From: Candidatus Cloacimonadales bacterium
GTDB lineage: Bacteria; Cloacimonadota; Cloacimonadia; Cloacimonadales; JAIOQZ01
Reading direction: 5' to 3'
Assembly (NCBI GenBank): GCA_963662655.2
Contig: CAXXTU010000002.1
Location: 192,001-256,000 of the forward strand
Length of the DNA: 64,000 nt
In this document: piece after piece, positions 1,387 through 54,483 of the stretch
How positions within the stretch are numbered: the stretch's first letter is position 1
Layout: each line of letters opens with the position of its first letter
Notes under the pieces: generated by a model
Seen by the model: the letters and a program-made list of their open reading frames with translations, nothing else
Databases searched by the model: none
What the model was told of the DNA's origin: nothing
Made by a program: the position numbers and the translations under genes

Positions 1387-1511
1387 GGCGTGAGTAGATT
1401 CGTTCGATCTCCCTTTTCAACGTGGTCTTCCACATCATTTCATTACGTTCGATAGTCCTGATGATGTGGTCTTTCACGTTGAAAAGGGAGATCGGGCGAA
1501 GATATCACGCC
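1387..1511 (+). repeat. Rod-like palindromic repeat family, copy 1 (125 bp)
   Basis: ggcgtgagtagattcgttcgatctcccttttcaacgtg ... cacgttgaaaagggagatcgggcgaagatatcacgcc; 26-bp stem with two G.T pairs, inner stem ccacatcat/atgatgtgg. Confidence 0.85.
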
Positions 1512-1587
1512 GGTAGATTGGTTCCTGGAACCTGTTCTTACTGGACACTCGGAAGAGCATTCAGAGAAGTTTTCTTCGGATGAGAAG

Positions 1588-1617
1588 AAAAAGAAAACCC
1601 CGCCTGAATGACGGGGT
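1588..1617 (-). terminator. Probable intrinsic terminator of add
   Basis: accccg/cggggt stem with an adjacent A-run on + (U-tract on -). Confidence 0.6.
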
Positions 1618-1648
1618 CCGCATTATCGTAACGAAGAGTTTTCCGTGA

Positions 1649-2716
1649 CTAGATTTTCTCTTCGATGATCACTTTTTCCTTCAATTCGGCTTCTTCCAGT
1701 TGCTCCATTTCGGCAAGTGCCCGGTTCAGGATTTTCACCTTATCTTTATATGGATAGAACGAGCTCTTGAAGCCGTTGATGATCAGATTCTTGATATCCT
1801 GATAATCCAGGCCGAGGATATCGTGAGCGAGCATGTACTCGTCGGTCATTGTCGTATCGGAGATGAGACGGTTATCCGTGTTCATGGTGACGCGAAGTCC
1901 GTAATCGATGTAGAACTTGATGGGATGTTCTGCGATCGACGCGACAGCCTTGGTGTGCATATTGCTCTTGAGGCATATCTCCAGGGGAATGCGGTGGTCG
2001 TTGACGAAATTGAGCAGGTCGCCGTTCTCGATCAAGCGTGTTCCGTGTCCGATGCGGTGCGTTCCACAATAGTGAAGCGCTTGATGAATGCTTTCAGGGC
2101 CATACGCTTCACCGGCGTGAATGGTGATATTCAGGTTGTTGCGTCTTGCAAGGTCGAATGCAGCCTGATGATCTTTCGCCGGGTGATTGTATTCCGAACC
2201 CGCGAGATCGAAGCCGAGAACGCCCTTGTTTTTGTATGCGATAGCAAGTTCAGCCAGCGTCAGCGATGTTGCCGGATCCATGTTGCGTATACCGCAGATG
2301 ATAACCCCCGTATGGATGTCGAATTTTCGTTCCGCTTCATGCAGACCGTCGATTACAGCTTCGGAGATTTGAGTGAGCTTGAGTCCCTGCTGCGTATGAA
2401 GAATGGGCGAGTAGCGCACCTCCATGTAACGAACGTTCTCTTTCGCAGCGTCTTCGGCGAGCTCAAACGCTGCTCTTGCCAGCGCTTCTTCTGTCTGAAG
2501 AACCGAGAGCGTTACGCTGAATCCCCTGAGGTATTCATCCAGACTCTTGCACTGCTCGGTGCAGCAAACGATTTTCTTCATTTCTTCGGGTGTGGATGCC
2601 GGAAGTTTGACCTTCTGCTTCTTTGCCAGGTCAAAGATTGTGCTTACACGCAACGAGCCGTCAAGATGAACGTGCAGATCAGCTTTCGGTAGTTTTTGTA
2701 TAAATTCCTTGTTCAT
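1649..2716 (-). CDS. add: Adenosine deaminase
   Basis: PKADLHVHLDGS, TIHAGE, RIGHG and NTDN metal-binding motifs. Confidence 0.92.
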   Translation of the reverse strand: MNKEFIQKLPKADLHVHLDGSLRVSTIFDLAKKQKVKLPASTPEEMKKIVCCTEQCKSLDEYLRGFSVTLSVLQTEEALARAAFELAEDAAKENVRYMEVRYSPILHTQQGLKLTQISEAVIDGLHEAERKFDIHTGVIICGIRNMDPATSLTLAELAIAYKNKGVLGFDLAGSEYNHPAKDHQAAFDLARRNNLNITIHAGEAYGPESIHQALHYCGTHRIGHGTRLIENGDLLNFVNDHRIPLEICLKSNMHTKAVASIAEHPIKFYIDYGLRVTMNTDNRLISDTTMTDEYMLAHDILGLDYQDIKNLIINGFKSSFYPYKDKVKILNRALAEMEQLEEAELKEKVIIEEKI

Positions 2717-2738
2717 AGTTCCTCCATTTTACAATAAA

Positions 2739-3302
2739 TTACAGCGTCCATCTGTTTCGGCAAACAATCTTCTCCATCGGGTGCCTTTTGTGGCTGCCGG
2801 CGAATTGCTTCACCAGCTTACCATACATCGTTTCCCGATCTTTCGGATATCCGAATGGACTCATTGCCACGACTCGTATTTGCTTCGGAATTTCGAGAAT
2901 CTTTTTTACGGATTCTTCGTTGAACGCCGCCAGCCAGCAACTGCCAATTCCGTGCTCGAGCGCAACAAGCATTATTTGCTGAAAAGCTATGGATGTGTCA
3001 ACAAGATAATAATCCTGATTGTTCAAGCGCACGCTGTGCTTGGGGTCAGCGCACGCTACAATGACCAGCGGAACGTCTTTCAGAAAGAAGTTGATAGTCC
3101 CGATAAATCCGCTCTTGAAGGCGAGTTTATGAATAATCTCCCGATCCTGAACGACGATGAAACGCCAGCACTGCCGGTTTTGCGCAGAGGGCGCAACGCG
3201 TCCGGCTTCGAGCATCTCTAGGATGACTTCTTCCGGTATCGGGTCGGGAGCGAAACTTCGTACACTGTGCCTTGCAAGTATCGTTTCGAGGCAACTTCCC
3301 AT
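2739..3302 (-). CDS. Nitroreductase family protein
   Basis: RHSVRSF, APSAQNRQCWRF and GIGSCW motifs. Confidence 0.9.
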   Translation of the reverse strand: MGSCLETILARHSVRSFAPDPIPEEVILEMLEAGRVAPSAQNRQCWRFIVVQDREIIHKLAFKSGFIGTINFFLKDVPLVIVACADPKHSVRLNNQDYYLVDTSIAFQQIMLVALEHGIGSCWLAAFNEESVKKILEIPKQIRVVAMSPFGYPKDRETMYGKLVKQFAGSHKRHPMEKIVCRNRWTL

Positions 3303-3308
3303 AGATGG

Positions 3309-4436
3309 TCAGAATCTGAAACCGAGTCCAAGCGATGCCGAGAAGGAATCGTACTCAGAGAAGTTGTAGTCGAAACTCACCTGGATCAGGCTCAACTGCG
3401 CTGCGGCCCCGAGAATGAAGCGATACTGGTTCTCGCCGTCGATATCGAAGGAAACCTTCTGCTCGCTGAGCTCGACAGGGGCATCTGAGTCGTCAAGCTG
3501 GTAGGTGTATCCGAACTCTACATTGGATTTTTCGAGAAGAACGCCAGCGTATGGCGTGATACTCAGCGTGGGAAGGCCCAACGTCTTGCTGATGTTCATC
3601 CCGCCTGCGTATGCGGTAGCCTTCATGATGTCGCCTACTTCAAGCTGCTGCATGAAGAAGTTGAACGAGACATCGATCGGAATCACGAAATCGACAAAAT
3701 CGCTCATCCACACAATGGGGTTGTGCTGAAATCCCACGCCCCAGTAGGTCAATTCCCCGATCTCCTCGTTGATGTTTACGTTCGGAAGCCAGCGAACCAC
3801 GAACACGGTTCCCATGATGGTTCCGAGCGTAAGCTGCGGAGCGAAATGAGGGATCATGTTCAGGTTGTCCAGAAGACCGTGAACAGGAAGCTCAACCGAT
3901 TCTTCGTCCACATAGTATTCTTCCTCAAGCTGTGTCGATGGATTGATCACAGTAAGCGTGTCGCCGCCAAAGTGAACTTGAATATTGTCGTCTTCGCTGC
4001 CGATAATTGTCGGTCCCTTGATCCCCACCGTGTATTCGTGCGCCATCACCTCTTCCACAAGCTCGTTGTAAAGAGGATGTGTATCGTCGTAGCCACCGTT
4101 ATTGACGATCGATTCCGCCTGGCTGCGGGTAAATCGGAATTTGCCCGTCGTGTCGAAGCTTTTTTCGCTGTCCTTGAAGTTGGTTCCCATCACCACGATT
4201 TTCATGGAGATGTTGAGTCCGAGGTTCTTCGAGCGCGGCGCCATCTGGAACCAGCCGCTGTTCATGTTTGCCCCGAAGGGTGAGGTGATCGGTGAGACAT
4301 ATTCTTTGGCGGCATCGCCGGTCAGCGCTTCCAATTGAGATTCGAGATCGTTGTCGGGTATGTCGTCGATGATATCCTGAGCGTAAAAAATATTCAATGC
4401 CAAAACAAAAACCAGTAAAATCAATATCTTCTTCAT
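3309..4436 (-). CDS. Secreted, probable outer-membrane protein of unknown function (possibly DUF6588-like)
   Basis: Signal peptide MKKILILL..., GGAGG RBS, amphipathic beta strands, C-terminal ...GLGFRF. Confidence 0.65.
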   Translation of the reverse strand: MKKILILLVFVLALNIFYAQDIIDDIPDNDLESQLEALTGDAAKEYVSPITSPFGANMNSGWFQMAPRSKNLGLNISMKIVVMGTNFKDSEKSFDTTGKFRFTRSQAESIVNNGGYDDTHPLYNELVEEVMAHEYTVGIKGPTIIGSEDDNIQVHFGGDTLTVINPSTQLEEEYYVDEESVELPVHGLLDNLNMIPHFAPQLTLGTIMGTVFVVRWLPNVNINEEIGELTYWGVGFQHNPIVWMSDFVDFVIPIDVSFNFFMQQLEVGDIMKATAYAGGMNISKTLGLPTLSITPYAGVLLEKSNVEFGYTYQLDDSDAPVELSEQKVSFDIDGENQYRFILGAAAQLSLIQVSFDYNFSEYDSFSASLGLGFRF

Positions 4437-4708
4437 TGCTAACTTCCTCCAATGCGTTCTGGTCGTATTCTCTCATGCAGTTCTTCGTTTGAATCACCCA
4501 AAACCTTTTGGCTCTTCAAACGGAATATCCTCTCTGATAAAAACTTCCGCCCCTTCTGATTTTCCCGTCTGTGGTCTGTCAAAGCGGAAATTATATCGTA
4601 TGATAATATGCGGTACTGAATCGAACTCCGTCAATGAAATTTTGTAAAAATCAAATATCAGCGTGCGCTCGGGCTGAATGTGATGGAAGAATTGCGAACT
4701 TGCTTCAG

Positions 4709-4740
4709 AAAAAGAAAAGCCCCGAGAATCCTCGGGGCCT
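4709..4740 (-). terminator. Intrinsic terminator of groES-trxA
   Basis: gccccgag-aatc-ctcggggc hairpin with A-run on +. Confidence 0.75.
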
Positions 4741-4760
4741 TCATTGCGACACTAAAACAA

Positions 4761-5078
4761 TTACACCGAATCGAGTCGCTCGGAAATCTTCGCCTTGTTC
4801 ACGACGCCAACCATCTGGTGTTTGATCGAACCTTCGGAAAACACCAGCAGGGTCGGAATCGACATGATCTGGTACTTCGAGGCAACCTGAGGCGCTTCGT
4901 CAACGTTGACCTTCACGACCTTCACTTTGCCTTCGTATTCTGCGGCGATCTGCTTCACGGTTGGATCCAGCATTTTGCAAGGACCGCACCATGGCGCCCA
5001 GAAATCGACCAGAACCGGAATATCCGATTGAAGAACTTCAGCCTCGAACTCGGCTTGCGTAAGATTTTTTACTTCCAC
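4761..5078 (-). CDS. trxA: Thioredoxin
   Basis: DFWAPWCGPCK active site, 105 aa. Confidence 0.95.
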   Translation of the reverse strand: MEVKNLTQAEFEAEVLQSDIPVLVDFWAPWCGPCKMLDPTVKQIAAEYEGKVKVVKVNVDEAPQVASKYQIMSIPTLLVFSEGSIKHQMVGVVNKAKISERLDSV

Positions 5079-5081
5079 AGC

Positions 5082-5351
5082 TTACTCGACAATCGCGAGG
5101 ACATCGCTGCGTGATACGATCAGATACTTGACAGCGTCGATCTCTACTTCCGTGCCGCCGTACTTCGCGTAGAGAATCTTGTCGCCGATCTTCACGATCT
5201 CTTTGAGTTCTTCGTCGGTTCCCACTGCAATTACTTCACCGATCTGCGGTTTTTCTTTTGCGGTATCGGGGATGATGATCCCACCGACTTTCTTTTCTTT
5301 AATTTCTACGGGCTTAATCACCACTCTGTCATCAAGCGGTCTGATATTCAT
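5082..5351 (-). CDS. groES: Co-chaperonin GroES
   Basis: [50 protein letters not shown]. Confidence 0.95.
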
Positions 5352-5411
5352 ATCATTCCTCCTTCAGGTTTTCTTTTTATTGTACTAATATAGATAATCC
5401 AATGAATCAAA

Positions 5412-5438
5412 TTAGCAAACACTTTTTTAGAGTGCCAG
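5412..5438 (-). promoter_or_regulatory. CIRCE-like (HrcA) operator upstream of groES
   Basis: TTAGCAAAC-N9-GAGTGCCAG versus consensus TTAGCACTC-N9-GAGTGCTAA; TTGACG -35-like box on - at 5446-5451. Confidence 0.75.
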
Positions 5439-5530
5439 TTTTTATCGTCAAGTAATTTCTGTGATTCGACGATGTTCTGCCAGGACGAATCACTTCCGAC
5501 CACACGCACGACCACGGAGAAATATGGGGT

Positions 5531-6940
5531 TTATTTCACCATCACCACTTTTCCGATGGCGATCGCTTTGTTTTGAACGTTCAACCGGCACAAATAGATT
5601 CCTGAGGCTACGGTTTTCCCGTTAAAATCTTTACCATCCCAACAGGCGAGTTGCTCTCCCGCAGGCCTGTAGCCCAACTCAAGGCGGCGTACTTTCTGCC
5701 CTCGACAATTGAAGATATCGATGTTAACCGTACCATCCTCGGGAAACTTGAATTTGAATATCGTACTCTCTCTAAATGGATTCGGATAATTGCCCAGCCT
5801 GGCTTCGATGTTTTGCTCTGGTTCAGGAGGTAATGGATTTTCCACGAAATGCCCGGTTCCATCATTATATGCAATCCCGACATAGGATACACCACTACCA
5901 TGACTCGGGCCAATGATGTCGATCGCGCCGTTGCCATCCATATCTGCGAAATTAAAAGGGCTTCCTTGTAAAAATGTTGTATCAGCTTCAGTGAACTTGA
6001 GATCGCCCAGATTAAACATCATCATGTTGCCGAACAACATGTCGTTGAATCCGTTTCCATCGAAATCCTCAACTCCGATCTGACTGGCAGAATCGTAGTA
6101 CCAGTATGTGAAATCCAGCGAGAATTCTCCATATCCGTCATTGCAATACACTGTAACGTCGATGATATCTGTGAAATACTCCCAGTAGCCTGCGGCGATG
6201 TCCAAGTCACCATCGTTGTCCATATCCCTCAAGCTCGTCATGAACATGGGTATCTGAGGTTCCACGATTCGGGAAGTCCAACTGCCGTCTTCATAATCGA
6301 ATATCGTGAGCCAATCCCCCGCGATCAACACTTCATCCCGTGAGTCTCCGTCGATATCACCGATGGAGATATCCTGAGGTGGAAGTCCCAAGTCGATGTA
6401 TTCCGGTGCGGTGAAGTTTCCGTGATTGTTCATCACGAAACCTGCACAACTTCCGTAGTTTGAACATATAGCGATATCATCTCCAGGGACACCATCGAAG
6501 TTGCCGGTTTTGATGCCAGTCATATATTTATCTTTAGTATATTCGATTGAGTCAATGTGGGAATACCCCTGAATGGCATAATCGTGAATAATTGCGAAAT
6601 AAATGGATTCAAGGTGGTCTTCAGCATCAAAAACGCAAGAGGTGGTAACAATATCAGGGCACTGATTCATGTCCATATCCCCAATTGCCACATAGCCATG
6701 ATTACCAATGATATAGCATGAATCCTGAATTGTAAATTCCCCAAAATGATTGTTTATGAAGACCGAGATACCTCTCCAGCCATCAGAAGGAACAGGTCTC
6801 GATCCCACAACTACGTCAGGGTAGCCGTCCACATTGATATCTGCCACAGCGGTCGTTTGAATATAATACGGTGCACGGAAACGGAGGCCGTAGAGAGCGA
6901 GCGATAGCAAACAAAATGCGAGAATCAACACCCTTTTCAT
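5531..6940 (-). CDS. FG-GAP/VCBS-repeat protein with C-terminal T9SS-type sorting domain
   Basis: Repeated DxNxDG.xD motifs (DINVDGYPD, DIDGDSRDE, DMDNDGDLD, DFDGNGFND, DMDGNGAID); signal peptide from ATG 6940; NYPNPF...VASGIY C-terminus. Confidence 0.85.
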   Translation of the reverse strand: MKRVLILAFCLLSLALYGLRFRAPYYIQTTAVADINVDGYPDVVVGSRPVPSDGWRGISVFINNHFGEFTIQDSCYIIGNHGYVAIGDMDMNQCPDIVTTSCVFDAEDHLESIYFAIIHDYAIQGYSHIDSIEYTKDKYMTGIKTGNFDGVPGDDIAICSNYGSCAGFVMNNHGNFTAPEYIDLGLPPQDISIGDIDGDSRDEVLIAGDWLTIFDYEDGSWTSRIVEPQIPMFMTSLRDMDNDGDLDIAAGYWEYFTDIIDVTVYCNDGYGEFSLDFTYWYYDSASQIGVEDFDGNGFNDMLFGNMMMFNLGDLKFTEADTTFLQGSPFNFADMDGNGAIDIIGPSHGSGVSYVGIAYNDGTGHFVENPLPPEPEQNIEARLGNYPNPFRESTIFKFKFPEDGTVNIDIFNCRGQKVRRLELGYRPAGEQLACWDGKDFNGKTVASGIYLCRLNVQNKAIAIGKVVMVK

Positions 6941-7142
6941 TTTTCTCCCAAAACCAAGTATGATTGTCAATTACACTAATTAGAGTGTGTCTCTAACAAT
7001 TGTCAAGTTTTGTGATATTCGCTGGAGGAAAACTCGAAACGACAATCAGTGAATGTGCGCCACATGATTCCTATCGGATAAATATCCTTGACATGATGAT
7101 TGTGTGATTGCTCAATCGGGAAAACCTTTGGGGAGGAATACT

Positions 7143-7772
7143 ATGAATCGTATTTTATTACTGTGCGTGTTACTTTCAATTTTTACCCTCTTTGCCTGTG
7201 CTCCAAAAGAGGAAGCGCCGGCGCAGGAAGCCAGCCAGCCGGTTGAAGAAAAGCCCGAAATGCTCGTTAAAACCAGCTTCTTCGATTTCCACGATCTGGA
7301 CAAGGATGGCTTTGTCACGGAGGAAGAGCATAAAGCAAATTATCGGAACCTTTTCGCATCGCATGATATTGACGGCGACGGCGTTCACAACGAAGGCGAA
7401 ATCAAAGGCAAGATTCAAAGAATATTCAATCGATGGGATAAAGACGGCGACAATAAGATAACGATTGAAGAAATGAAGGTTTCGACCGTTGGAGAAGGCT
7501 GGGAAGAGATCGACATCACTGGAATCGAATGTGACGACAATCCTGCTTTCTGTTTCTCGAAAATGGATATTGATGGCGATGGGAAGCTCGCCCGAACCGA
7601 GCATCTGGCATTCGTCGAGAAGCGTTTTGTAGCAATGGATGTGAATAGCGACAATATGATCGAAGAAATGGAATTTATGGATTCTTTCATGAAAACGCAT
7701 CAGGCGATGGATGGAGATATCGACCACGCGATCTCTTTAGATGAGCTTGAGCAGTACAACTACGGCGGATAA
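7143..7772 (+). CDS. Lipoprotein with six EF-hand-like motifs
   Basis: GGGAGG RBS before ATG 7143; lipobox LFAC; six DxDxDG-type loops ending in E. Confidence 0.8.
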   Translation: MNRILLLCVLLSIFTLFACAPKEEAPAQEASQPVEEKPEMLVKTSFFDFHDLDKDGFVTEEEHKANYRNLFASHDIDGDGVHNEGEIKGKIQRIFNRWDKDGDNKITIEEMKVSTVGEGWEEIDITGIECDDNPAFCFSKMDIDGDGKLARTEHLAFVEKRFVAMDVNSDNMIEEMEFMDSFMKTHQAMDGDIDHAISLDELEQYNYGG

Positions 7773-7793
7773 AACTTTTTTCCGATAAAAAAT

Positions 7794-7823
7794 AGCGCTT
7801 TCACCCGAAAGCGCTTTTTCTTT
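7794..7823 (+). terminator. Intrinsic terminator
   Basis: agcgctttc-accc-gaaagcgct followed by a T-run. Confidence 0.8.
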
Positions 7824-7920
7824 GCCCAACCGACGGATAATCGATAATCGCAGGTTTACCGTGAATTTCCTTGACGTCAGATTTGAGCGTGCATTCATGA
7901 GATTCAGGAAGTACAAAAAT

Positions 7921-9096
7921 ATGGCACCAAAGAAGAAAAAATCGAACATAAAAAAGAGAAAAAGCGCAAAGAAACGAAGCGGCACATCGCGCGGGTGTCT
8001 GCTGTTTCTTGTTGCGATCGTTATGCTTGCGGGACTGGCCTGGTGGTCTTTTCGCCATTTCAAGGAGCCGGTGGAAGCGCCCAAGCCCAAGAGCACGGTG
8101 ATGGACTCGATCTATTTCGCGATCGACAAGCTCGGTATTCCGCAAAAGCTCATCAAGACCAAGGACATGGGCGACAGCATTCGCGTGGAGATCGGTTTGG
8201 ACCCAGAACGTCACGATCTGCCGTTCGTGAACATGCTCTTCTCTGGAACCCTCGAGCAGGCCGGCGCAACGTTCGTCTCGGGCGTGACAGGTCCCAAGGA
8301 GCGTTTCCATACGCTCAGGTATTTCGACCCGATCGACGAGAAGACCGTCGTTGTCTATCTACATTTCGCTCGAAGGAAGGAATTCCCCGAGGACAAACCG
8401 CTGCTATCGATCATCGTGGACGATTTCGGCAATATACATGGCGAGGATCTCTCGCAGTTTTGCGACTTGATCGATCCCAACGTTACCTTCGCCATCATGC
8501 CCGGAAGGCCGCACGCCAAGGACGCGATGGAGAGGGGCCGGGCAGCCGGGCATGAATTGATCATTCACATGCCGATGGAGCCGATTGCTTATCCCAAGGC
8601 GGATCCGGGAAAGAACGCGATTTTCGTGGATATGAGTCCCAAAGAAATACGCTCGACCGTTCGAGATTATATCAAGGAATTACCGTATTGCGTAGGCGCG
8701 AACAATCACATGGGCAGCCTTGCAACCTCCGATTCCGATGTAATGAACGTGGTGCTCGACGAACTGAAAAAAGCAGGATTGTATTTCATCGACAGTCGGA
8801 CGATCGCCAACTCGGTCGCTTACGACGTTGCTAAAAAACTGGGCATCCGCACCGCGAAGCGGAACCTCTCTTTCCTCGACAAGCCGGATGCTTCCATGGC
8901 GACGATGAGTCAGCGCGCAGCCGAGCTGAAGAAGATGAAAGAGAACGGAGTGAAGCACGTTGTAACGATTTCCCACTGCTACCCGTCGGATCGCCTGAAG
9001 CAGCTTGTGCATTTCATCGATGAAGCGAAGGCGGCCGGATTCGAGCTGGTACCTGTATCGAGACTGCTAGAAGAAGAATACAAAGAGATATTGTAA
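7921..9096 (+). CDS. Divergent polysaccharide deacetylase family protein (YibQ-like), membrane anchored
   Basis: IIVDDFG, IHMPMEP, GANNHMGS, YFIDSRT motifs; basic N-terminus then a TM helix; start codon uncertain. Confidence 0.85.
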   Translation: MAPKKKKSNIKKRKSAKKRSGTSRGCLLFLVAIVMLAGLAWWSFRHFKEPVEAPKPKSTVMDSIYFAIDKLGIPQKLIKTKDMGDSIRVEIGLDPERHDLPFVNMLFSGTLEQAGATFVSGVTGPKERFHTLRYFDPIDEKTVVVYLHFARRKEFPEDKPLLSIIVDDFGNIHGEDLSQFCDLIDPNVTFAIMPGRPHAKDAMERGRAAGHELIIHMPMEPIAYPKADPGKNAIFVDMSPKEIRSTVRDYIKELPYCVGANNHMGSLATSDSDVMNVVLDELKKAGLYFIDSRTIANSVAYDVAKKLGIRTAKRNLSFLDKPDASMATMSQRAAELKKMKENGVKHVVTISHCYPSDRLKQLVHFIDEAKAAGFELVPVSRLLEEEYKEIL

Positions 9097-9109
9097 CAAA
9101 AGGAAATAC

Positions 9110-9913
9110 ATGGAACTGATCAAATCGATTATCCTGGGAATCATCCAGGGCCTCACCGAATTTCTGCCTGTCAGCAGCAGCGGGCACCTGGTTATCGCCG
9201 AGCATTTCATGCGGTTCGATAAACCGGATATGTCCTTCGATGTGCTCCTTCATTTCGGAACGTTGCTGGCGATCCTCATCTACTTTCGCAAAGACATCGT
9301 CAAGCTGCTCGCTTCGTTGAATCCGGCAGCGAGAGATGAAGAAACCAGAGACAATCGCAGGATCCTGCTATATCTTGCTGTCGGTACCGTTCCGATCGGT
9401 CTTGTGGGCGTATTGCTCAAGGACCAGATCGAATGCCTCTTCTCCAATCCGATTATCGCGGCTTCCATGCTCTTTTTGACCGGCGCGGTCGTACTCGTAT
9501 CGGACCTTGTCAGATCGCGGGGTATTCAGATGGGGAAGATGGGGCTCTTGCGTGGAATCCTGATTGGCATCGGCCAGGCGCTGGCGATCGTCCCCGGAAT
9601 ATCACGTTCCGGAATGACCATTTCCAGCGGACTGTTCGCTGGCCTCAAGCGCGATGACGCAGCGCGCTACGCGTTCCTGCTGGCGATTCCCGCCATCCTC
9701 GGCGCAACCGTGCTGGATATCGGCGCACTCTTCGCGATCGAGCCTCATTATGTCATTCGTTACATCGCCGGAACCGTAGCTGCGTTCATTTCGGGCTACA
9801 TGGTAATTTCCTTGCTCCTGACCATGGTGCGCAAGCAGAAGATGAAATACTTCTTCTTCTATTGCTGGGCCGTGGCGATTGTCACCATTATTCTGATCAG
9901 TAAAGGGTTATGA
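9110..9913 (+). CDS. uppP: Undecaprenyl-diphosphate phosphatase
   Basis: QGLTEFLPVSSSGHL and PGISRSG motifs. Confidence 0.95.
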   Translation: MELIKSIILGIIQGLTEFLPVSSSGHLVIAEHFMRFDKPDMSFDVLLHFGTLLAILIYFRKDIVKLLASLNPAARDEETRDNRRILLYLAVGTVPIGLVGVLLKDQIECLFSNPIIAASMLFLTGAVVLVSDLVRSRGIQMGKMGLLRGILIGIGQALAIVPGISRSGMTISSGLFAGLKRDDAARYAFLLAIPAILGATVLDIGALFAIEPHYVIRYIAGTVAAFISGYMVISLLLTMVRKQKMKYFFFYCWAVAIVTIILISKGL

Positions 9914-11834: not shown

Positions 11835-11857
11835 ACTTCTCGAAGCCATTCTCGCAA

Positions 11858-11937
11858 GTCGTCAGCAGATTCGTTCAATCGTACCGCAGACGTGCTATAT
11901 CCACGACGGAGGTGGGATTGGGCGAAGGTGCAACGAC
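11858..11937 (+). repeat. Rod-like palindromic repeat family, copy 2 (minimal 80-bp form)
   Basis: gtcgtcagcagattcgttcaatc...cgtgctatatccacg...gattgggcgaaggtgcaacgac. Confidence 0.8.
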
Positions 11938-12100
11938 GTTAAGGAATTACCGGCATAACCAAACACATAGAGCCATCAACACTCTTGAGTATTTAAATGA
12001 GACTCAATCCCCTGTTAAGGTGTAGGTTTTGTGAAACAACAACCTGGAATCTCAAAAGAGAAGGATGCTCTGGCGAGCATCCAGAGGGATTTTTTCTCTA

Positions 12101-21930: not shown

Positions 21931-21948
21931 CATAGTTTATCGTCTATC

Positions 21949-22078
21949 GGCGTGGCATCTTCGCCCGATCCCTCGCTCCATCGTGGATATACCACACCCT
22001 TGCAGGAAAAAGGGGATAAGGTGGCAAGGGTGTGAAACACCACGATTCCGCTGACGATCGAACGAACCTCCTCACACC
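21949..22078 (-). repeat. Rod-like palindromic repeat family, copy 3 (130 bp, inverted)
   Basis: ggcgtggcatcttcgcccgatc...atcgtggatata-c-cacacccttgc...gcaagggtgtg-aaaca-ccacgat...gatcgaacgaacctcctcacacc. Confidence 0.85.
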
Positions 22079-22091
22079 TGTTTGCTGAATG

Positions 22092-42903: not shown

Positions 42904-42925
42904 GCGGTATCGGCCATTCCTTACC

Positions 42926-43107
42926 GGCGTGGCATCTTCGCCCGATCGTGCCGCTCCAACGTGGATATAGCACGTCCGATTATCCACTAACATGATTTCG
43001 AGGAACGAAATCACAACGTTCATGTTTTCGTTTTGACTTTGTCAAAGCCGAAAATCAGATGTGCAACACCACGTCTCCGCGGCAGATCGAACGAATCTGC
43101 TCACGCC
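42926..43107 (-). repeat. Rod-like palindromic repeat family, copy 4 (182 bp, inverted, branched tip)
   Basis: ggcgtggcatcttcgcccgatcgtgccgc...gcggcagatcgaacgaatctgctcacgcc; inner hairpins tgatttcg/cgaaatca and tttgac/gtcaaa. Confidence 0.88.
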
Positions 43108-43135
43108 TTGAAGTATAATGAACAATGGAGGAATT

Positions 43136-44496: not shown

Positions 44497-44638
44497 TATG
44501 AAATTGAATGTTTGCAGGCACCCCAATTCCCCTCTTGGCATCTCTCTGGCGGAGCTTATTTTGCAATGCGGCTTGAAAAACCTTTACAAGATGACAGGGG
44601 ATAATTTTCTTGCACTGACAAAAAATAAAGGAGGTGTT

Positions 44639-44908
44639 ATGGCACTGAGCAACGAGGCCAAACAGGCGATTATGGTAGAGTTCAAACTCCATGATTCCGA
44701 TACCGGCTCACCAGAAGTGCAAGTCGCGCTTCTCTCGCATCGTATCAAAGATATCACGGAACATTTGAAAGTACACAAGAAGGACTTTCACACCCGCAGG
44801 GGATTACTTCAGCTTATCGGTAAAAGACGACGTCTGCTGAACTACCTGCAGAAGAAAGACATTGAACGATACCGACAAGTGATTAAAGCTCTCGGTTTGA
44901 GAAAGTAA
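44639..44908 (+). CDS. rpsO: 30S ribosomal protein S15
   Basis: [39 protein letters not shown]; 89 aa. Confidence 0.97.
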
Positions 44909-44923
44909 GTAATCATGATTTGC

Positions 44924-44968
44924 GGGAGGGAAATTCTTGCATGTTCCATGCAGAGTCCCTCCTTTTTT
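44924..44968 (+). terminator. Intrinsic terminator after rpsO
   Basis: ggaggga...tgcatg/catgca...tccctcc followed by T6. Confidence 0.8.
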
Positions 44969-44998
44969 CTTGTTTAAAGAAAAGCTGACAAATAACCC

Positions 44999-45065
44999 GT
45001 GGAGAGCCTCGAGCAATACGCTGAAGTCGATAATGCGGCTTGAGCCTATTGCTTCAGACCTCCAC
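44999..45065 (+). promoter_or_regulatory. Long irregular stem in the pnp leader (possible RNase III site)
   Basis: Nested pairing gtggag/ctccac, agcaata/tattgct, aagtcg/cggctt. Confidence 0.55.
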
Positions 45066-45093
45066 TTACAAACCTAACAAAAGGAACACAACG

Positions 45094-47385: not shown

Positions 47386-47400
47386 AAAAAGGATTGCACT

Positions 47401-48804
47401 ATGGATTACAAAGTAGCCGATATGAAACTTGCCGCGTTCGGCAGAAAGGAAATCGAGCTTGCTGAGGTGGAGATGCCGGGATTGATGGCGCTCCGCGAGA
47501 AATATCAGGATTCAAAACCATTGCAGGGTGCCCGGATAACGGGCAGCCTGCACATGACCATACAAACGGCCGTTCTCATCCAGACTCTCACCGCGCTTGG
47601 CGCGGATGTCCGGTGGGCGAGCTGTAACATTTTCTCGACGCAGGATCACGCCGCGGCCGCGATCGCGGAAGCCGGCGTTCCGGTATTCGCGTGGAAGGGT
47701 GAAACCCTGGAAGAATACTGGTGGTGCACGAAGCAGGCCCTTCTCTTCGGAGAAGAGGGCCCGCATCAGATCGTTGACGACGGGGGAGACGCGACGCTGT
47801 TCATTCAGGAAGGCTGCCGTCTGGAAGAGCTTTTTGAAGAGACTGGCAAGCTCCCCGATCCAGTGAAAAACAATCGCGAGTTCTCCATTCTTCAGAAGAT
47901 GATTCTTGAAGACCTTGAGAAGTATCCGAATCGCTGGCGCACCATCGCGGAAAACCTTCGCGGTGTCAGCGAAGAAACAACGACGGGCGTTCACCGTTTA
48001 TACCAGTATATGGAAAAAGGTGAGCTTCGTTTCCCGGCGTTCAACGTGAACGACTCGGTGACCAAGAGCAAATTCGACAACCTCTACGGCTGCCGCGAAT
48101 CGCTCGCGGACGGCATCAAGCGCGGAACCGACGTGATGGTTGCGGGTAAGGTGGTTGTCGTATGCGGTTACGGCGATGTCGGCAAGGGCTGTGCACAGTC
48201 CATGCGCGGTTTCGGCGCGCGCGTCATCATCAACGAGATCGATCCCATCTGCGCGCTTCAGGCCGCGATGGAAGGTTACGAAGTCAAGCCGCTCGAAGAA
48301 GCGCTCGAAGAAGCGGATATCATCGTTACCGCGACCGGGAACCGCGATGTTGTGACCGTCGAGCACATGATGAGAATGAAAGACAAAGCGATCGTCTGCA
48401 ACATCGGCCATTTTGACAACGAGATTCAGGTCGAGAAGATGTATGAGACCGAGGGCGTTGAGAAGATCAACATCAAGCCGCAGGTCGATGAAATCCGCAA
48501 GCCGGATGGAACATGCATCATTCTGCTTTCCGAGGGACGTCTGGTCAACCTCGGTAACGCGACGGGGCATCCTTCGTTCGTGATGAGTAATTCATTCACC
48601 AATCAGACGCTCGCTCAGCTCGAGCTCTGGCAGAAGGATTACGCGAACGAGGTCTACCGCCTTCCGAAGCATCTGGACGAAGAGGTTGCACGTCTTCATC
48701 TGGAAAAGCTGGGCGTTAAACTTACGCAGCTTACTCCCGAGCAGGCCGAGTATATCGGCGTGAAGGTCGATGGGCCTTACAAACCGGAACACTATCGCTA
48801 CTGA
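47401..48804 (+). CDS. ahcY: Adenosylhomocysteinase
   Basis: [48 protein letters not shown]. Confidence 0.97.
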
Positions 48805-48859
48805 TATAGCGATGCGTAAAAAACTACTACTATCCAATTAAATGAGGTGAGGAGTCAGA

Positions 48860-50158
48860 ATGGAACTTCTGAGTAAAATCGAGAAGAAAACCGCTGTTGT
48901 AACAGTTGTGGGATTGGGCTATGTCGGTCTTCCCATGGCAGTAACCGTTGCCCGTAAGGGATTCAAAGTACTTGGCGTCGATGTTAACGATTTTGCCGTA
49001 ACAAGTGTAAACGCCGGCAAGAATTACATTGGCGATGTGGATGATGCAGAACTTAAAGCACTTGTTGAGAAGGGTATGCTTCGGGCTACGAAAGATTATC
49101 GCGAAGTTGCCGAAACAGACGTGATCATGATCGCGGTTCCAACCCCACTCGATAAGTATCAGCAACCGGATTCTACCTATGTGAAGGCATCGACTAATTC
49201 ATTGGTTGATAATGTACGCCCAGGTTCATTGGTCATTCTCGAGAGCACAACCTATCCGGGAACCACGGAAGAGATCATCGCGCCGGCATTCGAATCGAAA
49301 GGTTACGAGATCGGTAAGGACATCTTCATCGCGTTCTCACCCGAACGTGTAGACCCGGGCAATGTGCAGTACAAAACCAACAACACGCCAAAGGTTGTCG
49401 GCGGTATGACCGATAACTGCAACCGTGTATCCAAGGTATTTTACAACGCGATTCTCGACGCGGAAGTATTTCCGGTGTCTTCTCCTCGCGTCGCCGAGAT
49501 GGAAAAAATCTATGAGAACACCTTCCGTAACATCAATATCGCGCTTGCCAACGAGATGACGATCCTATGCGATCGCATGGGCATCGATATCTGGGAAGTG
49601 ATCGAAGCGGCCAAGACCAAGCCTTACGGCTTCATGGCGTTCTACCCAGGCCCCGGCGTGGGTGGGCACTGTATCCCGATCGATCCTTTCTACCTCACAT
49701 GGAAGGCTCGCGAATACAATTACCACACGCGTCTCATCGAGCTGGCCGGCGAGATCAATGTTGCAATGCCTACGTTTGTTATCAACAAGGCGCAGCGTAT
49801 TCTCAACGATCAGGGAATTGCGATATCCAGAGCGAGAATCCTGCTTCTGGGCGCCGCCTACAAGAAGGATATCGAGGACATGCGCGAATCGCCGGTCATG
49901 GAAGTGATCCACGAGCTGGAAACGCTCAACGCGAATTTCGATTACAACGATCCGCACGTCCCGACGTTCCACAACGAACTCACCGGAAAGGATTATCATT
50001 CGACCGGTATCGACAAGATTGAAGAGTACGATCTGGTTATCGTGATAACGGATCATACAGCATACAACATGCAGGATATCGTGAAACGTTCCCGCCTGGT
50101 GCTGGATACGAGATACGCTACCCGAGGAATCGATTCCGAGAACATCGTAAAACTGTAG
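48860..50158 (+). CDS. UDP-N-acetyl-hexosamine 6-dehydrogenase (WbpA/WecC-like)
   Basis: GLGYVGLP, ESTTYPGTT, SPERVDPG, ENTFRNINIALANE, GGHCIPIDP. Confidence 0.9.
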   Translation: MELLSKIEKKTAVVTVVGLGYVGLPMAVTVARKGFKVLGVDVNDFAVTSVNAGKNYIGDVDDAELKALVEKGMLRATKDYREVAETDVIMIAVPTPLDKYQQPDSTYVKASTNSLVDNVRPGSLVILESTTYPGTTEEIIAPAFESKGYEIGKDIFIAFSPERVDPGNVQYKTNNTPKVVGGMTDNCNRVSKVFYNAILDAEVFPVSSPRVAEMEKIYENTFRNINIALANEMTILCDRMGIDIWEVIEAAKTKPYGFMAFYPGPGVGGHCIPIDPFYLTWKAREYNYHTRLIELAGEINVAMPTFVINKAQRILNDQGIAISRARILLLGAAYKKDIEDMRESPVMEVIHELETLNANFDYNDPHVPTFHNELTGKDYHSTGIDKIEEYDLVIVITDHTAYNMQDIVKRSRLVLDTRYATRGIDSENIVKL

Positions 50159-50207
50159 CGGAAAGTACGTGGTTTCTTGAAAACTCCCTTCAAAACCAAC
50201 CAAGGAG

Positions 50208-51182
50208 ATGAGGATGGAAGAAGGCGATGTTGTAAAAAAGAAGAGTATTAGCCTGAAGGACAAACGGACGCAGGTTATCATTCTGATCATTGTTATCGCA
50301 GTGCTTTTGCTTACCGGGTTCTACATTGTGAATCCGGGCGAGGAAGCCGTGGTGCAACGTTTCGGGGCGTACAACAGGACAACCCGTTCCGGCCTGCATT
50401 TCAAGCTGCCTTTCGGCATCGAGCATAAAACGATCGTCAAGGTGAAGGAAATCCGCAAGGAAGAATTCGGTTTCCGCACGGTGGAAGCCGGGATCAAGAC
50501 GCAGTACTCCCGAGGCGATTACTCGCATGAATCTCTCATGCTCACCGGCGATCTGAACATCGTTGATGTGCAGTGGATCGTTCAGTACCGCGTGAAGGAT
50601 TCCAAGGACTATCTCTTCAATATCCGTAACAACCGCGAGACGCTCCGGATTCTTTCGGAATCGGCGACGCGCCAGGTTGTGGGTGACCGTAGCGCTGACG
50701 AGGTGATCACGCTGAGCCGTCAGGAGATCGCTCAATTGGTACTCGAAGCGCTTCAGGAAGCGCTGGACAACTACAGCGCCGGTATTGAGATCGTAACGGT
50801 CGTGATGCAGAACGTGAACCCTCCGAAGCCTGTCCAGCCGGCGTTCAACGAAGTGAACTCCGCGCGTCAGGAGCAGGATCGCATCATCAACGAAGCACAG
50901 TCTCAATACAATAAAATCATTCCCGAAGCCAAGGGCCGGGCGCAGCGCATGATCCAGGAAGCCGAGGGTTATGCGATAAACCGCGTGAACCGCGCGCAGG
51001 GTGACGCAAAGCGTTTCACCGATATTCTGAAAGAATACCGGAAAGCGCCGAACGTGACAAAGAAGAGGATGTACCTCGAGACCATGCAGGATATTCTCCC
51101 CGAGCTGGAGCACGTGTACATGATCGACGACAAGCTGAAAAGCTTCTTGCCTCTATTGAACATGCAAAAGGGAGGTGAGTGA
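50208..51182 (+). CDS. hflK: FtsH protease modulator HflK
   Basis: TM helix plus SPFH domain, MLTGDLNIVDV, AFNEV, RMYLETM. Confidence 0.92.
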   Translation: MRMEEGDVVKKKSISLKDKRTQVIILIIVIAVLLLTGFYIVNPGEEAVVQRFGAYNRTTRSGLHFKLPFGIEHKTIVKVKEIRKEEFGFRTVEAGIKTQYSRGDYSHESLMLTGDLNIVDVQWIVQYRVKDSKDYLFNIRNNRETLRILSESATRQVVGDRSADEVITLSRQEIAQLVLEALQEALDNYSAGIEIVTVVMQNVNPPKPVQPAFNEVNSARQEQDRIINEAQSQYNKIIPEAKGRAQRMIQEAEGYAINRVNRAQGDAKRFTDILKEYRKAPNVTKKRMYLETMQDILPELEHVYMIDDKLKSFLPLLNMQKGGE

Positions 51183-52165
51183 TGAACAAGCACGTTATAC
51201 AGATCATCCTGCTGGTCATCGCGATATTCGTCGTTGCCGACGCCTTCTTCACGCTCGATGAGAGGCAGCAGGCGATTATAACGCAGTTCGGTCATCCGAT
51301 CGGCGGCGCGATCGAAGACGCGGGTTTGCACGTGAAGATACCGTTTATCCAGAAGGTGCATTACTTCGAGAAAAGGATTCTGGAGTGGGACGGCGATCCG
51401 AATCGCGTGCCCACCGCCGATAAAAAATACATCTGGATCGACATCTTCGCCCGTTGGCGGATATCCGATCCGCTGACGTTCTTCCAGTCGGTGAATACCG
51501 AAAACACGGCGCACAGTCGCCTTGACGGTATCATCGATGGTAAGACGCGCGACATTATCGCGCAGAATACACTGATCGAAATCGTTCGTAACTCGGATCG
51601 CAAGATGGAGTTTGCCGTGGACGATGTTCCTACATTCGAAGAGATGATGAAGGAGCAGGATATTCGCGACGGTAAGCAGGAGGGCGACGACGACCAGAGC
51701 TTCAACGCTACCGAAGGAAAGCGGCACGAGATCGCCAGACAGATTCTCGAAAAAGCGCTGAAGGACGCCGAACTCCTCGGTATCGAGCTGGTCGATGTTC
51801 GCATCAAGCGCGTGAATTACGAGGAGCAGGTTCGCCAAAAAGTTTACGATCGTATGATTTCAGAGAGGCAGAAAATCTCTGCCTGGTATCGATCCACCGG
51901 TGAAGGCGAGAAAGCTCGTATCCTGGGCGAGATGAAGAAAGAGCTTGACCGTATCGAATCGGAAGCGTACCGAACCGCTCAGGAGATTCAGGGGCGCGCA
52001 GATGCCGAAGCGACAAAGCTATACGCAGAGGCGTACGGACAGAGTCCGGAGTTCTTCGAGTTCATCAAGACGCTGGAGTCTTACAAGAAGACCATGAACA
52101 AAAAAGGAACGCTGATACTATCAACGGACAGCGACTATCTGGAAGAGTTAAAAGAAGGTAAATAG
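51182..52165 (+). CDS. hflC: FtsH protease modulator HflC
   Basis: TQFG, KIPFIQ, DVRIKR, VYDRMISER, A.KLYA.AY; start at 51179 (GTG) or 51182 (ATG). Confidence 0.92.
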   Translation: MNKHVIQIILLVIAIFVVADAFFTLDERQQAIITQFGHPIGGAIEDAGLHVKIPFIQKVHYFEKRILEWDGDPNRVPTADKKYIWIDIFARWRISDPLTFFQSVNTENTAHSRLDGIIDGKTRDIIAQNTLIEIVRNSDRKMEFAVDDVPTFEEMMKEQDIRDGKQEGDDDQSFNATEGKRHEIARQILEKALKDAELLGIELVDVRIKRVNYEEQVRQKVYDRMISERQKISAWYRSTGEGEKARILGEMKKELDRIESEAYRTAQEIQGRADAEATKLYAEAYGQSPEFFEFIKTLESYKKTMNKKGTLILSTDSDYLEELKEGK

Positions 52166-52184
52166 ATATTTGGAGGCTTAATTC

Positions 52185-53510
52185 ATGAAGATCGCAATAA
52201 TTGGGACAGGCTACGTAGGCCTGGTTACTGGAACCTGCTTTGCGGACGTCGGTAATAACGTTATTTGTGTGGATAATGACGTATCCAAAGTCAATCGTTT
52301 GAACAACGGGGAGATACCTATTTATGAACCCGGGCTCGATCGCCTGGTTAAACGGAATTTCAATGAAGGCCGTCTTACGTTTACGACCGATATCAAGAAG
52401 GCTGTGGAAGAATCTCTGATATGCTTCATCGCGGTGGGAACACCTCCAGATGAGGACGGCTCAGCGGATCTGAGTTACGTGCTGTCGGTTGCAAATGACA
52501 TCGCGACGTATATGAACGATTACAAGATCGTTGTTGATAAATCCACGGTTCCGGTGGGAACCGGCGACAAGGTTCAAGCGCTAATCGAGAAAGTTCTCAA
52601 AGAGCGCAAGGCAACGTACGAATTCGACGTTGTTTCCAATCCGGAATTCCTGAAAGAAGGGGCTGCGATTGACGATTTCATGAAACCCGATCGCATTATC
52701 ATCGGTAGCGACAACGTGCGAGTGCGCGAGATCATGAGAGTTCTCTATTCACCGTTCGCACGGGCGCATGAAAAGGTTATCTTCATGTCGTTACGTTCCG
52801 CCGAGATGACCAAGTATGCTGCCAACTCGATGCTGGCGACCAAGATATCCTTTATGAACGAGATTGCCATGCTTTGCGAAGAGCTCGGCGCGGATGTCGG
52901 AGAGGTACGTCACGGAATCGGTTCCGATACGCGTATCGGTTACAAATTCATCTACCCGGGTGTTGGCTATGGCGGAAGCTGCTTCCCCAAGGATGTGAAA
53001 GCGCTCATCCACATGGCGAACAAAAGCAATATCAATCCGCAGCTCATGCAGGCCGTGGAAGATGTGAACGCACGCCAGAAGGAACTTCTCGCGAAGAAGG
53101 TTCTCAAGCATTTCAACGGCGATATTAAAGGCAAGAAGCTGGCTCTCTGGGGTCTTTCGTTCAAGCCTGAAACGGACGACATGCGTGAAGCTCCGGCAAT
53201 CGTGATCATCGAGATGTTGCTGGCGGAAGGCGCGGAAGTCGTCGCGTACGATCCGGTGGCGATGGAAGAATCCAAACGCCGTTTTGGAGATCGTAAGGGT
53301 CTCACGTACGCCGAGAACAGCTATGCGGCCCTCCAGGACGCAGAAGCGCTTCTTCTGGTAACCGAGTGGCACCAGTTCCGTTATCCCGATTTCGACAAGA
53401 TCAAGGCCAACCTGAAGAATCCTGTGATTTTCGACGGACGAAACCAGTACAGCCTGGGCGAGATGAAGCAGATGGGATTCACCTATTACGGAATAGGACG
53501 AGGTGAGTAA
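52185..53510 (+). CDS. ugd: UDP-glucose 6-dehydrogenase
   Basis: [48 protein letters not shown]. Confidence 0.93.
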
Positions 53511-53533
53511 AGAGTTTTCCGGACGATTACTGG

Positions 53534-53962
53534 ATGGGTTTTGCGCTTGAAGAAGCACGCAAGGCCGCCACGTTGAATGAGGTGCCGATCGGCGCTGTAA
53601 TCGTAAAAGATGATCGAATCGTAGCGACGGGTCATAACAGTATGCGCTCGCAAAATAATCAGTTAGCGCATGCCGAGAAAATCGCGATCGAGAAAGTTAT
53701 CGATTCGGGTGAAAAATTCCTTTACGATTATACGCTGTTTGTGACGATTGAACCCTGCCTCATGTGTGCGGGGGCGATTATCTGGAGTCGTGTGGGACGC
53801 GTTGTTTTTGGCGCGTTCGATGAGAAGGCCGGAGCTGTTGGCTCGGTCTATAACGCGCTCCGTGAAAAATGCATGAATCATCGGCCGGAGGTTGTTTCCG
53901 GCGTGAGGGAAGAGGAATGTTCCCGGATGATTCAGGAGTTCTTCAAGAAGAAGAGATTTTAA
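53534..53962 (+). CDS. tadA: tRNA-specific adenosine deaminase
   Basis: EVPIGAV, HAE, EPCLMC, KAGAVGS, FFKKKR; adjacent to tRNA-Ser; start ambiguous (see findings). Confidence 0.88.
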   Translation: MGFALEEARKAATLNEVPIGAVIVKDDRIVATGHNSMRSQNNQLAHAEKIAIEKVIDSGEKFLYDYTLFVTIEPCLMCAGAIIWSRVGRVVFGAFDEKAGAVGSVYNALREKCMNHRPEVVSGVREEECSRMIQEFFKKKRF

Positions 53963-53972
53963 CGATATACGC

Positions 53973-54062
53973 GGAGAGGTGCCGGAGCGGTTGAACGGGG
54001 CGGTCTCGAAAACCGTTGAATGCTTACGCATTCCCAGGGTTCGAATCCCTGCCTCTCCGCCA
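53973..54062 (+). tRNA. tRNA-Ser (anticodon CGA)
   Basis: Acceptor stem GGAGAGG/CCTCTCC plus GCCA; anticodon arm gcggt-ctCGAaa-accgt; long variable arm; T-loop GGTTCGAATCC. Confidence 0.97.
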
Positions 54063-54108
54063 TTTTTGTGCCCGGATTTTTTGAATGCCCCTCTGCTTGA
54101 ATCCATTT

Positions 54109-54152
54109 TGTCTGAATCAGGACTTGCGGGATTAGCAAGATTTTCAGGAAGG
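54109..54152 (+). repeat. 9-nt-periodic dispersed repeat, copy B
   Basis: tgtctgaatcaggacttgcgggattagcaagattttcaggaagg. Confidence 0.65.
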
Positions 54153-54222
54153 AGAGCGACGGCATCTTTTGTTCTATCTTCCGCATTCTTCATTCAGTGT
54201 ATCATGCCTTTCGCGAAGGGCT

Positions 54223-54269
54223 TGTCTGAATCAAGATTAACTGGATTAACGGGATTTACATGATGGGGA
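54223..54269 (+). repeat. 9-nt-periodic dispersed repeat, copy C
   Basis: tgtctgaatcaagattaactggattaacgggatttacatgatgggga. Confidence 0.7.
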
Positions 54270-54304
54270 GAGGAGAGACTGAGAGAAATTTTCTCCTCGA
54301 TCAC

Positions 54305-54483
54305 GCACCTTCGCCCGATCCTTCGCTCCATCGTGGATATAACACGGCTCAAAACGCTCTTGTAATCATTCGATATCAGTTTATCAAGCCTGAAAATGTT
54401 CTATTGTTCCCGGCGTGGGATAAGCATCCGCGCGTTTATCACCGTGTAACACCACGATTCCGCTTGCGATCGAACGAATCTGC
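54305..54483 (-). repeat. Rod-like palindromic repeat family, copy 5 (~179 bp, inverted)
   Basis: gcaccttcgcccgatccttcgctccatcgtggatataacacgg...ccgtgtaacaccacgattccgcttgcgatcgaacgaatctgc. Confidence 0.85.

Follow-up and report, generated by a model that had tools for sequence, protein, structure and literature searches.

The window, a 64,000-nucleotide stretch (C2:192001-256000) of the genome of a Candidatus Cloacimonadales bacterium, contains five copies of a dispersed hairpin repeat of ~130 bases, the members of which we call rods (single rod ~55 bp). Rods are a real repeat family that is apparently undescribed and confined to one genus, and we give about even chances to the view that they constitute a non-autonomous single-stranded-DNA hairpin element, which has spread at replication forks by means of a mover that is unrecognized or lost. 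The source genome, termed G000, comprises 3.81 Mb in two contigs and is 98.95% complete, but at least 38 kb are missing from its sequence, which bears on the absence of an enzyme for the rods. It was compared with three congeners of the same genus, G001 (a single contig), G002, and G003.

For the census of rods in G000, arm profiles were made from the genome's own copies, and the arms were then paired. The two profiles gave 147 and 144 matches at E<=1, as compared to 1 and 0 in the reversed genome. Removal of one redundant row from 139 paired hits left 138 rods, in addition to 8 and 6 solo arms; the original prediction, which had been made from the letters of the window, was therefore right in expecting many more copies genome-wide. 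The 138 rods are intergenic, with an overlap of at most 30 bp with any called gene; the gene contexts rest on hexamer-based gene calling and are approximate. Eight unparsed copies are excluded wherever 130 copies are considered. The covariance model R1 matched 126, 37, 44, and 67 times in G000, G001, G002, and G003, respectively, and after removal of opposite-strand duplicates there were at least 33, 33, and 59 unique rods in the three congeners, which are lower bounds from 150 scored candidates per genome. Two of the 33 rods of G002 lie on the 37.8-kb contig G002:C10 (L279, L280), which carries a second fliP, a gene that G000 lacks. The tetranucleotides of this contig are nearest to those of G000 and its two rods are of the G000 type; it probably stems from G000's species and was placed in the wrong bin.

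Outside the genus, R1 had no match in four other genomes of the family, no rod was found under strict filters in 148 other genomes of the phylum (22 candidates scored per genome), and 57 other genomes of the order gave one weak pattern hit. There was also no rod match in JGI metagenomes, viral contigs, and phage and plasmid collections. Rfam detected only tRNA in the window, and at eleven rod loci the best match overlapping a rod had an E-value of 0.13, far below the gathering cut-off, so that no Rfam family covers the element, as had been anticipated. Searches of the open literature, which left subscription papers, ISfinder, and supplements outside, gave no description of the family.

From its base inward, a rod consists of a 6-bp outer stem, a bulged A (111 of 130 copies), 3 bp, and a purine-purine tandem (121/130), which are followed by an 11-bp core. 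Two neighboring T.G pairs lie in this core, and 109/130 copies retain both of them as TT/GG. Then comes a mid-stem, mostly of 10-12 bp and either with a purine loop or fully paired, and beyond it lies an inner box, which has TGTT/TATAT in 97 of the 114 copies parsed there. An upper stem leads on to a variable tip, which has a loop motif like the GTTCGATAG of copy 1 in 44 of the 130 copies. The two conserved boxes are separated by a freely covarying stem of ~11 bp, and the outer stem is the most variable paired part of the rod. A weakly conserved tail of ~10 nt is present on the 3' side of the foot, with little conservation on the 5' side. At the foot, G000 copies show a weak NC(G/A)A, and congener copies show another stretch that is C-rich. 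In ~14 G000 copies (e.g., C2:832802, 2349467, 3037428), the module of the inner loop is inverted, so that its GTGG-TGTT half belongs to the right arm, an arrangement of sequence that suggests a pseudo-symmetric binding box.

One of the two strands can be designated the folding strand because G.T, G.A, and T-rich mismatches persist on it. In the mid-stem, purine-purine mismatches outnumber pyrimidine-pyrimidine mismatches by 119 to 13, and G.T outnumbers A.C by 31 to 11, whereas the asymmetry of the outer stem is weaker (G.T 24, A.C 20). The called strand is the better folder in 129/130 copies as RNA (-77 versus -63 kcal/mol) and in 123/130 as DNA (-40 versus -36 kcal/mol). G.U wobbles and tandem G.A are pairings characteristic of RNA.

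A key property of rods is their orientation relative to the replication fork. With the replication origin of G000 set at dnaA (C2:2.766 Mb), in agreement with the skew minimum, the folding strand has lagging-strand sequence, i.e., that of the leading-strand template, in 98 of 133 C2 copies (p 4e-8), and the rods are spread along both replichores. The same polarity was found in G001 (32/33) and in G003, where 50/59 rods were of the lagging type when the switch point was initially inferred from the rods, and 49-53/59 by measured 20-kb skews. Control repeats were not clearly polar (27:25 and 23:12, and 7:4 for repeat B, a second dispersed repeat of the genus described below). At thi4 and tRNA-Ser, the rod flips relative to the gene between two species but stays constant relative to the fork. 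Of the 138 G000 rods, 60 lie between convergent and 10 between divergent genes; at the 68 co-directional sites, the folding strand is antisense in 46 and sense in 22. Polarity was seen at 43 of the 60 convergent and all 10 divergent sites, but at only 14/25 sites where the flanking genes are lagging-oriented, and therefore a transcription effect or later inversions contribute as well. Local inversion accounts for only 11 of 36 minority-orientation copies in G000. The arms of minority copies are weaker (p 0.008), and shortened forms are commoner among these copies (5/34 versus 2/96, p 0.013), although their profile scores are no different (p 0.65). Convergent sites are enriched for rods (60/138, as compared to 180/1325 of the intergenic regions), and the median distance of rods to gene 3' ends is ~38 nt, while that to gene starts is 124-171 nt.

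Mobility is indicated by empty orthologous junctions, which were found for four G000 copies in at least one congener and for two congener copies in G000, in a comparison that covered part of the congener DNA, short of whole genomes. One G000 insertion splits the last codons of a sprT-like gene that is intact in all three congeners. The segments inserted at empty sites include ~1-40 extra bases 5' and ~23-25 extra bases 3' of the rod, and at least one rod site is occupied in two species. For 7/125 copies the closest paralogue is found within 10 kb, as compared to 0.7 expected, and 14 of the 138 copies form 7 doublets, all of them tail-to-tail, one of which was copied as a unit. Target duplications at the insertion loci, which the original prediction had suggested looking for, were not found: direct repeats of 4-9 bp were at the shuffled level in 130 copies, and 2-3 bp are not excludable. 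Vertical conservation was considered from shared neighbors as well, but the ~13 of 45 congener rods that adjoin a gene whose G000 orthologue also has a rod within 600 bp are near chance, because 131 of 1325 intergenic regions are occupied and convergent sites are favored.

Copies also appear to be built from exchangeable modules. Outer stem, mid-stem, and tip assort almost independently; similarity between the arms of one module correlates (0.71 and 0.48), while that between modules does so at 0.06-0.20, and near-identical interiors are paired with differing, self-complementary outer stems. This assortment fits a trading of modules between copies, with the two conserved boxes as points of exchange, through gene conversion or folded-strand recombination. 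In G001, two near-identical direct rods with the same 30-bp leader flank an AT-rich orphan gene of 313 aa (L173:8741-10219); the gene has no Pfam match, the arrangement is cassette-like, and G000 and G002 have a single rod beside a neighbor gene in common with this locus. In G003, rods and neighboring repeats are near-exactly duplicated in tandem with periods of 307 and 432 bp (L236:11680-12118 and L239:6205-6770).

The two arms of rods change together to a high extent. When 38 copies from four species are aligned, both sides change in 33 of the 44 pairs, as compared to 16-23 in slid controls, and 31 disjoint close paralogue pairs show 69 compensatory double changes (48 isolated) versus ~9 expected, besides 79 breaks on one side only. 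Full pairing of the mid-stem was seen in 30 copies, which include several of one subfamily and represent ~10 independent cases; the arm retained from the ancestor was the right one in 18 and the left one in 1, and in 11 neither arm was ancestral. Such a bias is the signature of fold-back template switching (PMC7202029). The view that structure is under selection in a single strand, as originally proposed, thus holds in so far as a one-strand structure is maintained, but part of the covariation may be mechanical palindrome correction and not selection. Arm correction almost never removes the basal mismatches (the purine tandem is corrected to Watson-Crick pairing in 1 of 130 copies), which argues that these mismatches are required.

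The idea that an enzyme encoded elsewhere moves the rods led the original prediction to suggest looking for an HUH/RAYT, tyrosine recombinase, or nuclease gene flanked by copies, but none could be tied to rods in the four genomes. Twelve enzyme families were searched in the genus, and the fetched flanks were then scanned for rods. With Y1 genes, no rod was present at any of 15 examined loci, and 4 more of the 19 listed matches, judged by coordinates, are more than 50 kb from or not near listed rods. Several Y1 genes of the RAYT-like and IS200-like kinds are present in the congeners, and a separate repeat family flanks each of them (L055, L056, L061, L062, L067, L068); one congener Y1 gene sits between an Xer-type gene and dinB in two species. 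Only two tyrosine recombinases, both Xer-type, are common to all four genomes, and IntI passed the TIGR02249 cut-off in 0/5 genomes. G001 has no reverse transcriptase (RT), G000 has one with an internal stop, and no RT locus has a rod within 1.5 kb. Searches for GxxExxY and TnpB gave no match, IS110 matches were confined to G002, and none of the GIY-YIG, DUF559, IS630-type, four-helix bundle, and HNH families was both common and rod-flanked. No Y2 gene was linked to rods, though the positive control of this search also gave no signal. Clustering of 260 rod-flanking proteins revealed no enriched nuclease family.

Among the searched enzyme genes, rods are found beside only one Xer-type gene and one MrfA-type helicase gene of G000 but not directly beside their orthologues. 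The MrfA/Hrq1-type DEAD helicase (L296:2406-4922; L297-L299) has an internal HNH match (E 2e-9) and occurs in all four genomes. It adjoins a sprT-like gene and a phosphodiesterase gene in all four, and rods flank the helicase-sprT pair in G000 only. As to resident elements, G000 harbors a Mu-like transposable prophage in 3-4 copies, ~12 ISL3-like and 8 IS3-like copies (family names by sequence reading), and a GIY-YIG gene with an internal stop. Three of ten ISL3-like copies are rod neighbors; the detailed comparison of ends covered the ISL3-like element, whose ends are unrelated to rods.

Following the favored reading, an enzyme encoded elsewhere would bind the folded single strand of DNA and copy it; our guess for this enzyme is an HUH-type or other single-strand transferase that may have been lost. 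New copies would enter at forks, with the folding strand joining the nascent lagging strand (leading-strand template), and/or copies with the folding strand on the exposed lagging template would be eroded and lost, two effects that are not separated here. Exchange between copies at the two boxes could reshuffle outer stem, mid-stem, and tip, and fold-back template switching could rewrite the 5' arm from the 3' arm. Rather unlikely, but conceivable, is a distinct class of fork-polarized hairpin parasites without a dedicated transposase of a known family, the folded strand of which host or unrecognized proteins would incorporate into the nascent lagging strand as if it were a foreign Okazaki fragment, with copies that swap nested modules at the two boxes and carry repeats or genes as cargo in or between copies.

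Several aspects weigh against a mobile single-strand element. Its non-autonomous nature is in line with the empty orthologous sites, but the postulated enzyme was not found: no searched family is both common to the four genomes and rod-flanked, and G000, which is richest in rods, contains neither a Y1 gene nor a remnant of one. The lagging-strand template is where HUH enzymes of the IS200/IS605 type act, as in simple IS608-type peel-and-paste (passages in PMC3333891 and PMC6006769), and this is opposite to the placement of the rods' folding strand, unless the weaker strand is the active one. The empty sites (~75% identity) are too diverged to fix the rod ends. No two dispersed G000 copies are identical, with a best alignment score of 0.95, and current activity is therefore unproven. 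Some copies are common to different species, which fits old, static, and possibly host-kept sites. Whole-element excision was not seen in contigs over four rods, and joints were explained by paralogues, but these contigs are probably from the source sample and the excision test carries no weight. Moreover, DNA folding and RNA folding cannot be told apart by the present data.

This last point leads to RNA-based explanations. In a retro-mobile RNA hairpin, the leading-strand template would receive the folding-strand RNA, and the nascent leading strand would prime its reverse transcription. Such a process predicts the observed polarity plus the right-to-left rewriting of arms, and passages in PMC6698660 describe this kind of leading-primed retrohoming, with insertion into the leading template, for endonuclease-deficient (En-minus) mutants of group II introns. 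The larger strand energy gap as RNA than as DNA and the RNA-typical G.U and tandem G.A pairs would also be accounted for. We nevertheless consider it quite unlikely, as the genomes have no common RT and no RT locus near a rod, no clear promoter was found (-35/-10 5 versus 7 of 130; -10-like words 22 versus 12), and there is neither a ribozyme family match nor a target duplication. Improbable in our view is a host-kept 3'-end RNA element that stabilizes or processes transcripts as an RNase III site, an exonuclease block, or a Rho-linked terminator, like E. coli REPs, for which such roles are described (bioRxiv 10.64898/2026.03.23.713779). The enrichment between convergent genes and the position near gene 3' ends and far from starts speak for such a role, but the enrichment also fits insertion tolerance. 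The folding strand is mostly antisense between co-directional genes (46 of 68 sites), which argues against a 3' untranslated region RNA, and 56/138 rods have no sense gene upstream of the folding strand, so that this part of the original prediction is weakened. A U-tract of an intrinsic terminator follows the folding strand in only 2/130 copies and the other strand in 12/130, and the orientation tracks the fork and not thi4 or tRNA-Ser.

Two further explanations assign rods to DNA-binding host or recombination systems. A polar chromosome-maintenance site, at which a host fork, repair, or segregation protein reads the folded strand and copies are seeded and homogenized by gene conversion, would agree with the near-complete polarity in G001 despite heavy rearrangement, with copies on both replichores, with the fixed box spacing (10-12 bp in most), and with the failure to find a mobile-element enzyme. 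It is rather improbable, since searches of sister genera yielded no rods, copy numbers differ by a factor of four between genomes, roughly one in four G000 copies is reversed, and one copy truncates a gene. A likeness to the dif-like site of G000 (C2:796582, near the skew terminus) was ruled out by comparison; a likeness to DnaA boxes, loop B of the hairpin ribozyme, the T-loop of tRNA, or domains V/VI of group II introns was rejected by eye. Very unlikely are attC-like sites for a tyrosine recombinase that captures and shuffles DNA between folded copies. The anatomy is the same (two boxes, an extrahelical base, a variable tip, and a G.T-rich stable strand), the strand placement equals that of sedentary integrons as portrayed in passages of PMC5371416 and PMC5027507, the orphan gene of G001 lies between near-identical direct copies, and the nested module swaps fit box exchange. 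Against this stand the lack of an integron integrase over the cut-off in five genomes, the presence of only two common recombinases (both Xer-type), the absence of an RYYYAAC/GTTRRRY core and of arrays, and neighbors that are ordinary genes of normal G+C.

All five rods of the window were verified with their coordinates and strands by the covariance model and by folding versus shuffles, and the model detected no sixth copy in the 64 kb. The shared basal stem is present, as are the TT/GG pairs, the purine mid-loop, and TGTT/TATAT. The GA/GA tandem, in contrast, occurs as such in copies 1 and 4, with GG/GA in copy 3 and GA/GG in copies 2 and 5. Copy 1 (1387-1511, + strand; model bounds 1384-1514) is full-length and has indeed replaced its mid-stem by another, fully paired one; its inner loop is symmetrized (TCTT/TCTTT), its tip has the loop motif mentioned above, and its 3' tail (1512-1524, + strand) is a near-repeat of 1394-1405. 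It lies between convergent genes for a FlgD/T9SS-CTD protein and adenosine deaminase, in the minority orientation, in which the folding strand has leading-strand sequence. Copy 2 (11858-11937, + strand; model bounds 11855-11940), also in the minority orientation, lies between era and the convergent gene of a 1826-aa CTD protein and shows both claimed compensatory changes. It is shortened, and its 7-nt loop, formerly taken as one extreme of the tip range, is a remnant after loss of the left inner box and the tip. Copy 3 (21949-22078, - strand; model bounds 21946-22081) is full-length with a purine mid-loop and a pyrimidine-rich tip, between a PLP aminotransferase gene and a convergent CTD protein gene, in the majority orientation (lagging-strand sequence).

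Copy 4 (42926-43107, - strand; model bounds 42923-43110) is a long form in the majority orientation, and its tip is not unrelated sequence, as had been assumed for the long tips of up to ~100 nt, but contains repeat B (42976-43055, - strand), an independent two-hairpin repeat of the same genus. While copies 1, 2, 3, and 5 have convergent neighbors as described before, copy 4 lies between co-directional + strand genes for TPR and flavodoxin-like proteins, and its folding strand is antisense to both. Copy 5 (model bounds 54297-54493, - strand) has a long branched tip and a degenerate outer stem and is found between flgH and a convergent tRNA-Ser, again in the majority orientation. Folded as DNA, the called strands of copies 1, 2, and 3 had z-scores of -11.4, -4.5, and -4.6; folded as RNA, those of copies 4 and 5 scored -9.0 and -3.5. 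A CTGAGCGGAGTCGA-type repeat and a 49-nt direct repeat adjoin copies 1 and 5 (window 1164-1258 and 54108-54270). The CTGAGCGGAGTCGA-type repeat, which is presumably linked to GIY-YIG genes, has ~26 loci in G000.

Repeat B is a two-hairpin unit that starts with TCGGCTTT. Its exact pattern occurs 35, 36, 18, and 38 times in G000, G001, G002, and G003, with one hit in 77 other genomes and no match in viral contigs. BLAST hits in G000 lie inside (22) and outside (17) of rods; the repeat fills the tip of ~25/130 G000 rods, also stands alone, often begins directly at the stop codon of FlgD/T9SS-CTD genes, and forms tandem arrays with 44-92-bp periods.

The spread of short palindromic repeats is understood only where a RAYT, an integrase, or a DDE transposase is available. 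Rods combine a strong structural constraint, up to 97% replication polarity, and a built-in non-polar control (repeat B) with no recognizable mover, and they are therefore a clean case for the question of whether strand bias originates from insertion or purging and for the hunt for a new single-strand DNA enzyme, although the restriction to one poorly known genus narrows the reach of the finding. That the covariation of dispersed hairpins can be partly mechanical, by directional palindrome correction, bears on RNA-motif discovery.

Among known systems, REP/REPINs are portrayed in passages of PMC3116915 and PMC3333891 as hundreds of extragenic, lineage-specific hairpins with needed stem mismatches, inverted doublets, an asymmetric tailed unit, and no target duplication. 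Rods likewise are imperfect extragenic palindromes with a conserved stem mismatch and a high copy number. However, a rod is a single hairpin with two boxes, whereas REPs form a pair of 20-40 nt, and rods lack GTAG/GTGG or CnGA 5' of the foot. No RAYT is flanked by rods, and the congener RAYTs carry other repeats. Rods are also strongly fork-polar, and the inverted doublet is not their main unit (14/138 copies); a single rod could be read as a fused doublet, though its arms are not separate hairpins.

ERIC and MITEs (miniature transposable elements with inverted repeats) are comparable in other respects. ERIC generates a TA target duplication, whereas rods show none, and the rod termini are the most variable paired part and not conserved inverted repeats; no IS630-type gene was seen in G000 or G001, and none with matching ends. 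Like rods, ERIC/RU repeats are imperfect intergenic palindromes, of ~100-170 bp and with shorter and longer forms (PMC2759123, PMC2229807). With non-autonomous derivatives of IS200/IS605 and with rolling-circle elements of the IS91 type, the latter being biased against the fork direction according to passages in PMC3971601, rods would have in common a single-strand, fork-coupled, orientation-biased mobility, but IS200/IS605 elements use the lagging-strand template, and rods have neither a linked TnpA or TnpB nor a fixed target tetranucleotide. The attC core is defined as RYYYAAC ... GTTRRRY in passages of PMC5027507. Rods resemble attC sites, such as the VCRs of sedentary chromosomal integrons, in their extrahelical bases, variable tip, and more stable strand on the leading template, but they are dispersed singly beside housekeeping genes without cassette arrays or IntI, and the AAC/GTT core is absent from either strand of the rod consensus. 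As defining features of each family are lacking, rods are filed under neither REP/REPIN, attC, nor MITE. What stands of the attC/REPIN-like architecture originally proposed is a similar way of working, namely a strand-specific imperfect hairpin that is read by structure.

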